Assembly (NCBI GenBank): GCA_963823555.1
Contig: CAWGMA010000003.1
Coordinates: forward strand, 320,001 to 384,000
Source: Candidatus Eiseniibacteriota bacterium
Lineage (GTDB): Bacteria; Eisenbacteria; RBG-16-71-46; CAVPCR01
Length of the DNA stretch: 64,000 bases
Reading direction: 5' to 3'
Shown here: piece after piece, positions 13,120 through 15,971 of the stretch
How positions within the stretch are numbered: the stretch's first letter is position 1
Layout: each line of letters starts with the position of its first letter
The notes under the pieces: generated by a model
Database searches by the model: none
What the model saw: only the letters and a program-made list of their open reading frames with translations
What the model was told of the DNA's origin: nothing
Made by a program: the position numbers and the translations under genes

Positions 13120-13170
13120 GAAGAGGTCCCCGATCAGAGGCTTCGATGGTTCCGTGTGTAAGGAGACCCC

Positions 13171-13734
13171 ATGAAGTTCCCCGGCTTCTCCCTCATCCTC
13201 GCGCTCTGGATCGCGCTCCTCATGGGGCCCGGATGCGGTGACGACGACCCATCCCCCAACCAGCCGCCCGACGGCACGGTGGCCGCCGACTTCACCCTGC
13301 TGGATGTGAACGCCCACTCGGGCACGTTCGAGCAGGGCGTGTCGCCCCGCCAGTTCGAGGGCCGGATCTCGGCCTGGTACTTCGGGGCCGCCACCTGAGG
13401 GTACTGCCGTGGCCAGTTCGGCCACCTCGACACGATGCAGGACGAGCTGGCCGCCGAGGAGCTCGCTCTTGACGGGCAGATTCTCGGGGTCAACGAGGCG
13501 GGAGCCGAGGGTGGGGTCGAGGCCATGTGTCTGGGCCGGGATCTCCCCCTGTTGCAGGACACCTCGACCGCTCAGGTGTGGGGCGCGTGGGAAGTGGCCT
13601 ACCGGGATGTCGTCGTCCTCGACGCGGAGAACCGCATCATCACGATCTACAACTTGAGCGAACATGACCTCGGCCAGCCGGCGAACTACGAGGCGCTGAA
13701 GGCGATCCTCCGCACCGCTGCCGCAGGGAATTGA
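13171..13734 (+). CDS. selenocysteine-containing redoxin (AhpC/TSA-thioredoxin fold) lipoprotein, UxxC active site, 187 aa
   Basis: ORFs 13171-13398 and 13435-13734 are in one frame joined by TGA 13396-13398, giving WYFGAAT-U-GYC; lipoprotein signal (..LLMGPGC); DFTLLD redoxin motif; SECIS-like hairpin just downstream. Confidence 0.85.
13409..13425 (+). promoter_or_regulatory. bacterial SECIS-like element
   Basis: Stem GTGGCC / loop AGTTC / GGCCAC starting 10 nt after the UGA; G at loop position 2 followed by U. Confidence 0.75.
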
Positions 13735-13748
13735 AAGGAGGGGCGACC

Positions 13749-15971
13749 ATGGCTCGCTCCATCATCGCTCGCCGATGGGGGCTCGCGCTCCTCGTCGCCG
13801 GCATCCTCGCGGCGACGCCAGCCACCGCCGATCGGGTCGGCGACCGTCTCGCGGGGCTCCTCGGCGAATTACCCGCGGAGGAGATCCCGACGGGTGTCCT
13901 CATCGACCGCGTGCTCGAGCTCGCGCCGCTCACGGATCATGATGGGACCGCAGCGTCCATGCCGGTGACCCTTCGTGACTGGCGCCAGATGCTCCACCAG
14001 ATCTCGCGGGCATCCCTCGCGCCGCCCTCCTGGTCCGATCTCGAGGCGGTCACCGCCCAGGCTCAACCCCTGATCGACGCCGGCGTGATTCCCATCGCGA
14101 TCATGAACTTCCGCTACGATCGGATCCGCCGCGATGCGCTCGAAACCGGAGCGCTGGTGGCGCGCGAGGGGCGCCTCACGATCGGCGTCGGAGATGCCTT
14201 CACGATCGGGCGCGCCTTCGCCGCCAGTGCGCTTCGTGATGACACCCATCGCGGGCATCACATCGTGTTCGCCCTCGATCGCGACATCTACCTCACGAAC
14301 GATCCGGTACGACCGCTCAGGTTCGAGATCGATTTCGACGACGGGAACGGCTATGTCGCGGCGGCCTTCGGCGAACGACGCGCCGTCCGCTACCTCCTGA
14401 GCGGGCGGAAAGTGGTCAGGCTGCGCATGACGCTGGCCGATGGCAGCGTCCAGCATGGCGCCTTCGAGTTCGATGTGCGCGCCCTCGACACTCCGGCTCC
14501 CGACGATACGCTGCACGTGACCGCCTCGATCCCGTTCAATGGCGGATTGGGCACCGGAGATGCGTACGTCTATCTGGCCCCCGGCCACGCCGCGCTCGTC
14601 AATCCGGTGGTGTTGCTCGAGGGTTTCGACCTCGACAACAGCATGAACTGGGACGAGCTCTATGCCCTGCTCAACCGGGAGGAGCTGATCGAGACCCTGC
14701 GCCTGCGCGGCTACGACGCGGTGGTGCTCAACTTCGGCGATGCCGTCGATTTCATCCAGCGGAACGCCTTTGTCGCGGTCGAGCTCCTCGCACAGATCCA
14801 GGGCATGATCGCGCCCGGCCAGACGGTGGTCCTCGCCGGGGCCAGCATGGGCGGGCTCGTCGGGCGCTATGCGCTCGCCTACATGGAGATGAACGCGTTG
14901 CCGCACGCGGTGCGGACCTTCATCTCCTTCGATTCCCCCCAGAACGGGGCCGCCATCCCGCTCGGGATCCAGTACTGGCTCTGGTTCTTCGCCGATCAGT
15001 CGCCGGAGGCCGCGGCCTTGCTCGCCGCCCTCGATGCGCCCGCGGCGCGACAGATGCTCGTCTATCACCACACCGATCCGCCGGGCGCGACGGGAGAGAG
15101 CGATCCCCTACGGTTCGCGCTTGCCGCCGAGCTCTCGGCGCTCGGGGATTACCCTTCCGGGCCGCGCCTGGTCGCGATCGCCAACGGCAGCGGGGCGCGA
15201 ACCGGGCAGGGCTTCAACCCCGCCGCGCAGTTGATCCGCTGGGAATACTCGAACTGGTACATCGACCTGATCGGCAACGTATGGGCCGTGCCCGATGGGG
15301 CGAGCGCCACCATCTTCCGCGGGCTCATCGACATCATCCTCCTGCCGCCCGATGAGCTCACGGTCACGGTGGCCGGAACCCAGCCCTACGACAATGCTCC
15401 CGGCGGGTGGCGGAACTCGATGGCGGAGATGGCGGCGACCCCGGCACCCTACGGCGACATCATCGCGCTCCATCCCAACCACTGCTTCATCCCATCCACG
15501 AGCGCCCTGGCTCTCGACACGAGCGATCTCTTCTACGACATCGCGGGCGATCCCGATCTCCTCGCGCACACGCCCTTCGATGCCGCCTACTTCCCGCTCG
15601 CCAACGAGGAGCACGTTGCCATCACGCCCGAGAACGCCGCCTTCATCCTCGCCGAGGTCGAGGGCGGTACGGTCGCGATCGCGGAGCCGGTTCCGAGCGT
15701 GGCGCGAGTCGAGCTCGCCACACGGAATCCGATCGCGAGCGAGGCGCTCATCCGCTACGCGCTGCCCCACGCCGGTCCCGTCCGGCTGTCGGTCATCGAT
15801 GTCCTGGGCCGGGAGGTGGCCCGGCTCGTCGATCGCCCGCTCACGGCCGGGGCGGGCGAGGTGGTCTGGAGCGCACGGAATGCCGGCGGATCCCGGGTCG
15901 CGGCCGGGGTCTACTTCGTCCAGCTCAGGGGATCGGATTTCTCCACCGCCACGAAGGTGCTCGTCGAGTGA
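13749..15971 (+). CDS. secreted lipase-like alpha/beta hydrolase with C-terminal FlgD-Ig/T9SS-like domain
   Basis: Signal peptide, LEGFD, GASMGGLVGRYAL, FDSPQNGA, tail DVLGREV...AAGVYFVQL; GGAGG RBS before ATG 13749. Confidence 0.8.
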   Translation: MARSIIARRWGLALLVAGILAATPATADRVGDRLAGLLGELPAEEIPTGVLIDRVLELAPLTDHDGTAASMPVTLRDWRQMLHQISRASLAPPSWSDLEAVTAQAQPLIDAGVIPIAIMNFRYDRIRRDALETGALVAREGRLTIGVGDAFTIGRAFAASALRDDTHRGHHIVFALDRDIYLTNDPVRPLRFEIDFDDGNGYVAAAFGERRAVRYLLSGRKVVRLRMTLADGSVQHGAFEFDVRALDTPAPDDTLHVTASIPFNGGLGTGDAYVYLAPGHAALVNPVVLLEGFDLDNSMNWDELYALLNREELIETLRLRGYDAVVLNFGDAVDFIQRNAFVAVELLAQIQGMIAPGQTVVLAGASMGGLVGRYALAYMEMNALPHAVRTFISFDSPQNGAAIPLGIQYWLWFFADQSPEAAALLAALDAPAARQMLVYHHTDPPGATGESDPLRFALAAELSALGDYPSGPRLVAIANGSGARTGQGFNPAAQLIRWEYSNWYIDLIGNVWAVPDGASATIFRGLIDIILLPPDELTVTVAGTQPYDNAPGGWRNSMAEMAATPAPYGDIIALHPNHCFIPSTSALALDTSDLFYDIAGDPDLLAHTPFDAAYFPLANEEHVAITPENAAFILAEVEGGTVAIAEPVPSVARVELATRNPIASEALIRYALPHAGPVRLSVIDVLGREVARLVDRPLTAGAGEVVWSARNAGGSRVAAGVYFVQLRGSDFSTATKVLVE

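Follow-up and report, generated by a model that had tools for sequence, protein, structure and literature searches.

A split gene in a Candidatus Eiseniibacteriota genome almost certainly encodes a TUGYCR-family selenoprotein, predicted to be a lipid-anchored envelope redoxin

The window, i.e. the whole stretch of 64,000 nucleotides that was analysed, contains on its forward strand a single reading frame for a protein of 187 amino acids which is interrupted only once, by an in-frame TGA at codon 76 (residues WYFGAAT-U-GYC), and which itself terminates in TGA (13732-13734). The coordinates of the gene and its features are collected in Table 1. Standard gene calling breaks this frame into ORFs of 75 and 99 amino acids, and public gene calls of exactly these two lengths are identical to the two halves of the gene. 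The original prediction had treated the two short ORFs as one frame broken by a TGA at the start of a CxxC motif, which is what a reading of the sequence gives. The annotation is corrected accordingly, the selenocysteine (Sec) codon splitting the public calls of this gene and of most of its relatives.

The gene is flanked on one side by a lipA-lpdA-E1beta run and on the other by a gene for a secreted, alpha/beta-hydrolase-like protein whose C-terminus shows a weak FlgD-Ig domain (13749-15971, + strand), which starts 14 nt past the selenoprotein stop and is possibly co-transcribed with it here. This hydrolase-like gene was not found in the flanks of the homologues, and a scan for promoters and terminators found none. 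A comparison of approximately 1.5 kb of flanking DNA at 31 loci revealed no conserved operon: no ORF cluster was common to more than three of the 31 loci and none included the window locus, nor was there any recurring neighbour that hints at a substrate, or any recurrent transporter or metal gene.

Table 1. Features of the TUGYCR-family gene, with positions in the window
Feature	Position	Strand	Basis
Shine-Dalgarno-like AAGGAG, 5 nt upstream of the ATG	13160..13165	+	Sequence
187-aa TUGYCR-family redoxin gene, with TGA76 as the Sec codon	13171..13734	+	NF053656, 207 bits, cut-off 100
Lipoprotein signal peptide (predicted) up to Cys22, non-canonical G-P-G-C	13171..13236	+	Conservation in homologues (predicted)
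TlpA/ResA/Prx-type thioredoxin-fold domain, approximately residues 39-182	13285..13716	+	Profile, model (pLDDT 89), fold matches
In-frame TGA (Sec76), which opens U-G-Y-C	13396..13398	+	Reading frame and homologue alignment
Cys79, partner in the UxxC pair	13405..13407	+	No variation in alignments A2 and A5
Bacterial SECIS hairpin, 6-bp stem, AGUUC loop	13409..13425	+	Covariation; fits the consensus model given in part of PMC13188914
Arg145-Asp146; Arg in the TlpA/ResA cis-Pro slot, the peroxiredoxin Arg position	13603..13608	+	Sequence alignment

When translated through the TGA, the protein matched the NCBIfam domain model NF053656.1 (redoxin_TUGYCR) with 207.1 bits against a cut-off of 100 (E 1e-61) over model positions 2-145 of 146, and it carries the T-U-G-Y-C-R motif verbatim at residues 75-80; its match to Pfam AhpC-TSA (PF00578), at 20.2 bits, is below the 26-bit cut-off of that family. 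It is the sole NF053656 member within its own genome, and nothing in the gene differs from the family in a way that would affect membership. As the title of NF053656 is ‘TUGYCR motif thioredoxin fold (seleno)protein’, the gene is a further member of a selenoprotein family which NCBIfam has already curated: the call of a selenoprotein was right, whereas the suggestion that it might represent an undescribed family finds no support. A full-text literature search for ‘TUGYCR’ and ‘NF053656’ returned no paper naming the family, and NF053656 is not mentioned in the sections and term-search results covered of PMC13188914, a 2026 review of 119 prokaryotic selenoprotein families. The family is curated yet uncharacterized in the searchable literature. 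Two groups of predicted selenoproteins in Table 1 of that review, ‘Prx-like thiol:disulfide oxidoreductase’ (PF00578, UxxC) and ‘Redoxin family’, likewise have UxxC and belong to the AhpC-TSA clan, but our protein falls under the PF00578 cut-off and NF053656 is missing from the parts of PMC13188914 covered.

The genome (4.6 Mb, 92.5% complete) was searched for the selenocysteine machinery, and selA, selB and selD were all found over their cut-offs, selD with a TGA of its own, together with a tRNA-Sec(UCA); an ordinary tRNA-Trp(CCA) is also encoded. Within the phylum, NF053656 was matched over cut-off in 28 of 206 genomes, with one TGA in 30 of the 33 matches and the other three being internal repeats of a single gene, and 50 of 401 sampled Myxococcota genomes carry the family, with one TGA in 59 of 64 matches. 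Where positions were checked, codon 76 was TGA in all 31 lead domains and in 29 of 30 Myxococcota domains (29 loci; the top-scoring loci with one duplicate dropped), the other one having TGC. The lead domains include that of the window gene, one from a myxococcotal locus and two from sub-cut-off paralogues. At the protein level, 72 full-length homologous domains were obtained from the 70 proteins that span the site in the top 150 of 1160 library relatives; the pair reads C..C in 58, W..C in two and is lost in 12, and most of the other 80 of these 150 relatives are halves that start past the Sec site. Cysteine is therefore the usual residue at position 76 of these library homologues, as the selenocysteine reading had anticipated, and TGC and TGT codons are also seen in DNA. 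Four metagenome Cys loci were found by a pattern that demanded Cys, and therefore prove that Cys genes exist, not how frequent they are. A quick tree needs seven changes between Sec and Cys, with 39 of its 77 branches open. The selA gene occurs in 27 of the 28 carriers of the family, the exception being a 75% complete genome which has selB; this co-occurrence tells us little, because selA is present in 183 of the 206 phylum genomes.

A genuine stop codon, an error of sequencing or a tryptophan codon (code 4), each meaning that no selenoprotein is made at all, are extremely improbable readings of the TGA. The tryptophan at position 76 in two library homologues and the split of the public gene calls at the TGA would fit such a reading, but the only W homologue placed on the tree sits among Sec forms, which is consistent with a misread TGA, the TGA is kept at the same codon over two phyla, and three relatives of approximately 90% identity terminate at the same residue. 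In addition, a public RNA run yielded a contig that covers 13349-13499 with no differences across the codon and no other letter over the TGA, at a depth of approximately 2 which is no demonstration of transcription, and the genome has a tRNA-Trp(CCA) while the gene itself terminates with TGA. The conserved TGA76, the tRNA-Trp(CCA), the relatives, the RNA-run contig and the tree together led us to reject tryptophan readthrough, sequencing error and a pseudogene, and the internal TGA almost certainly encodes an active-site selenocysteine.

A hairpin, GTGGCC-AGTTC-GGCCAC, lies 10 nt past the TGA, exactly as had been described from the sequence, with its loop starting after a spacing of 16 nt and G-U at loop positions 2-3. 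The bSECIS consensus, as given in part of PMC13188914, comprises a stem of 4-16 bp, a loop of 3-9 nt, G in loop positions 1-2, a distance of 16-37 nt from the UGA, and an MFE (minimum free energy) of -7.5 kcal/mol or lower; the values found here are 6 bp, a 5-nt loop, G at position 2, 16 nt from the UGA, and -13.2 kcal/mol for the 42 nt following the UGA, all within that consensus. A 6-bp hairpin of the same register and loop pattern follows only 66 of 109,056 TGA triplets in the genome, and the gene's own terminal TGA has one of the six pairs at this register. All six pairs (register +11..+16 with +22..+27) are present in 28 of 31 lead and 27 of 29 Myxococcota TGA domains; three non-Sec repeats of one gene have one, three and two pairs, and five Cys genes have four, two, four, four and four. 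In 30 distinct sequences, the stem is paired in 97.8% of 180 cells and changed on both sides in five of six pairs (42 cells), giving a covariation score of 0.625 as against 0.171 in shuffled alignments (0 of 500 shuffles) and 29-57% pairing in slid controls. Many of the stem changes also affect residues 81 and 85 of the protein; the hairpin is a clear example of a bacterial SECIS element whose pairing survives such coding changes. The loop sequence is no independent evidence for a SECIS element, because it is fixed by Gln-Phe codons and because the AGTTY loop also occurs in non-Sec repeats. In MFE folds, the hairpin is formed in windows of 40-50 nt and is replaced by a longer competing stem in windows of 60-100 nt. 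A second Sec redoxin in the same genome has a hairpin in the same register with an AGT loop. The Cys homologues, the Sec machinery and the covariation of the hairpin all support the Sec readthrough and SECIS readings of the original prediction, and SelB would in all likelihood bind the GU-loop hairpin and deliver Sec-tRNA at UGA76. None of the three refuting conditions named in the original prediction was borne out: Cys occurs at the site in homologues, selABCD are all found in the genome, and the RNA-run contig has no other letters over the TGA.

The N-terminus had been read as a lipoprotein signal. Cys22 does stand behind a hydrophobic stretch, and a Cys in such a setting is kept among the homologues (29 of 31 in one set, 24 of 30 in the other), but its box, G-P-G-C, is non-canonical and fails both of the coded lipobox patterns, the looser, PROSITE-like one of which is passed by 23 of 31 homologues. 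Because the lipobox of our protein is non-canonical, the case for lipid anchoring rests on conservation among the homologues, which makes export of the protein, with lipidation at Cys22, likely. The reading as an exported redoxin is supported, and exported or lipoprotein selenoproteins are already known in SaoX and SaoC, as described in part of bioRxiv 10.1101/2022.07.06.499078.

A model of the protein, built with AlphaFold2 from 51 sequences (pLDDT 89), has an extended thioredoxin fold, the nearest folds being those of DsbE (Z 17.8), ResA (17.4) and Etrx2 (16.0), with BCP and AhpE at approximately 15, and hhalign with 4-sequence templates gave 98.5% for TlpA/DsbE/ResA as against 95.2% for peroxiredoxins (Prx). 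The protein thus resembles the TlpA/ResA/CcmG/DsbE group (PDB 3gl3, 2f9s and 4hqz) in fold (Z 16-17.8, rmsd 2.1 Å), in CxxC spacing and in its predicted membrane anchor, but differs from it in having Sec at the first position and Arg in place of the cis-Pro, with 18-24% identity. In TlpA, ResA and CcmG this cis-Pro stands at the start of strand beta3, and here Arg145, within Y-R-D-V-V-V-L-D, aligns at that place; in a sequence alignment it pairs with the Arg of four Prx/BCP proteins of the same genome and with the Pro of four of its TlpA-like proteins and of PDB 2lrn. According to section 10 of PMC2757866, the site is occupied by a cis-Pro in thioredoxins and cytochrome-maturation proteins, where this residue is more conserved than the CxxC and is likely to be part of the protein-substrate site, whereas the Arg found there in peroxiredoxins activates the catalytic cysteine. 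With the peroxiredoxins BCP, PrxQ and AhpE and the envelope protein PprX (PMC3322552, in part) our protein shares the fold (Z approximately 15), the Arg at the cis-Pro position and the predicted envelope location. However, the active-site motif of peroxiredoxins is PxxxTxxC (same source and part), and as this is absent the protein is by motif not a peroxiredoxin; it has G-x-x-T-U-x-x-C, with Sec or Cys where Prx has Thr.

Genome-locus domains retain Arg145 in 26 of 30 and in 30 of 30 cases, and CxxC library domains in 55 of 58, but none of the 16 domains that are without the redox pair has it; these 16 are not independent (four are near-copies and three come from one protein), and most of them keep Asp146. 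This loss together with the redox pair is a sign that Arg145 may be catalytic, although the loss of Arg in dead domains may also reflect general decay. We considered Cys120 as a resolving cysteine linked to Sec, since 17 of 30 Sec forms, most of them from the same phylum, have it; its presence in only three of 30 Myxococcota domains and two of 50 library forms does not support this role.

Given these features, the best explanation is that of a Sec protein of the TUGYCR family, predicted to sit lipid-anchored in the envelope, with peroxides or similar small oxidants as the substrates that it reduces, a proposal to which we give about an even chance. In such a mechanism, the Sec76 selenolate would attack the oxidant, with Arg145 stabilizing the site as in peroxiredoxins, Cys79 would resolve the oxidized Sec76 to a selenenylsulfide, and DsbD, or a TlpA fed by DsbD, would re-reduce the enzyme. 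A three-domain DsbD is encoded beside a TlpA lipoprotein in the genome and is a plausible electron source for the predicted enzyme; peroxide reduction in the envelope that is fed by ScsB/DsbD via TlpA is known for Caulobacter PprX, as described in part of PMC3322552. Of all the steps proposed, that of a peroxide-type substrate is the least secure. Against it stand the position of Sec, which is first in the CxxC while the peroxidatic Cys of Prx is second, and the best sequence and structure matches, which are to TlpA/DsbE/ResA and not to Prx.

Both of these points also bear on a different role for the same Sec lipoprotein, as a TlpA/ResA/CcmG-like reductase of disulfides or sulfenic acids in envelope proteins. 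A UxxC/CxxC with its nucleophile at the first position, the leading fold and profile matches to DsbE, ResA and Etrx2 and the presence of DsbD in the genome are what such a reductase would show, and the role is possible, if less favoured. The protein lacks, however, the cis-Pro that is likely to be part of the protein-substrate site (PMC2757866, in part), the Arg in its place tracks the intact redox pair, and there are other, Pro-containing TlpA proteins in the genome, one of them with Sec. We consider a peroxide-type reductase more likely than a protein disulfide reductase because Arg145 occupies the cis-Pro slot and is lost together with the pair.

A third role, in which the Sec lipoprotein would bind or traffic a metal or metalloid in the manner of Sco or Sao proteins and turn over no oxidant, is unlikely. 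Sco proteins have a CxxxC motif and not the CxxC spacing found here, Arg is no metal ligand and, as described above, the flanks of the 31 loci have no recurring transporter or metal genes. In its favour are weak SCO1-SenC matches in 18 of 30 members (E <= 1) and the possibility that the dead tandem repeats could serve as binding modules. Metal binding may become possible where the cis-Pro is lost (PMC2757866, in part, citing Su et al. 2007), and a metal role has been proposed for the exported selenoproteins SaoX and SaoC in part of the preprint cited above.

Returning to the peroxide-type reductase, we suggest tentatively that the TUGYCR family could be a distinct type of exported seleno-peroxidase, with first-position Sec in a UxxC motif, a TlpA-like scaffold and the peroxiredoxin Arg replacing the cis-Pro. 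If this were true, the family would represent, in living form, the type of hybrid that has been proposed to link peroxiredoxins with the proteins of cytochrome maturation, and such seleno-peroxidases would be widespread in this phylum and in the Myxococcota, concealed by split gene calls. The Arg in place of the cis-Pro, with its co-loss with the redox pair, offers a concrete and cheap handle on the question of an envelope peroxidase.

Among wider kin, the bacterial deiodinase-like selenoproteins (PF00837) share with our protein the F-G-x-x-T-U spacing, and hhalign gave 96.8% against four such loci from relatives; those loci, in contrast, keep Pro at the cis-Pro site, and a Pfam scan found no PF00837 match for our protein or in the 51 and 30 members scanned. 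Deiodinase-like genes with an in-frame TGA (L068-L071) occur in four of 31 related genomes. The N-terminal domain of animal selenoprotein P (PF04592) is, like our protein, a secreted thioredoxin-like domain with UxxC. PF04592 was weakly matched by four of 15 distant paralogues, with E values of 0.0025-0.19 and none at cut-off, and the sole PF04592 match in 111 genomes lies inside a distant paralogue. Our protein has no match to PF04592 and none of 30 core members matched it at E <= 1. Searches for homologues, whether by a 40-sequence clan profile or by one paralogue run against longer proteins, brought up no PF04592 protein, the PDB and fold matches listed include no selenoprotein P entry, the Atlas gave unnamed clusters only, and no bacterial relative of selenoprotein P is named in the parts of PMC3473315 and PMC10298544 covered. 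The wider TUGYCR clan may, with low probability, be the bacterial kin of this domain. Seven sub-cut-off UxxC paralogues (L050, L051, L109-L112 and L115) have K/E-D-D replacing Y-R-D, and two of the five K/E-D-D paralogues that were scanned individually gave weak PF04592 matches.

Several unusual relatives were also observed. Six distant paralogues, all belonging to a single family within the phylum (L107, L108, L113, L114, L118 and L121; e.g. G030:C132:97341-97658 and G033:C1:54793-55146) have an in-frame TGA followed directly by Cys, giving a U-C dipeptide and no CxxC; their top NCBIfam match is NF053656, below cut-off at 48-70 bits, and from their sequences they are possibly an uncatalogued selenoprotein subfamily. 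One gene, G003:C15:78866-81178 (L046; P0011), encodes five tandem TUGYCR domains with TGA in the first and the last, while from its middle three domains the redox pair, Arg145 and the hairpin have all been lost. The proteins P0002-P0005, P0014 and P0165, one of them named as from Planctomycetota, are lipoproteins with a dead first domain and a second that is cut exactly at the Sec position, and P0007 is an apparent fragment between two such TGAs. In the Atlas, several of the clusters nearest to P0013, a natural Cys homologue, and to L102 are recorded as viral (Uroviricota) redoxin-like proteins, which we note as a lead only. The genome itself encodes four other likely selenoproteins, at C2:260432-260803, C1:1632270-1632605, C2:668410-668700 and C4:475969-476883, namely a BCP (T-P-G-U), a TlpA-like protein (U-G-P-C, with a hairpin in the same register), a Prx-like UxxC protein and SelD.
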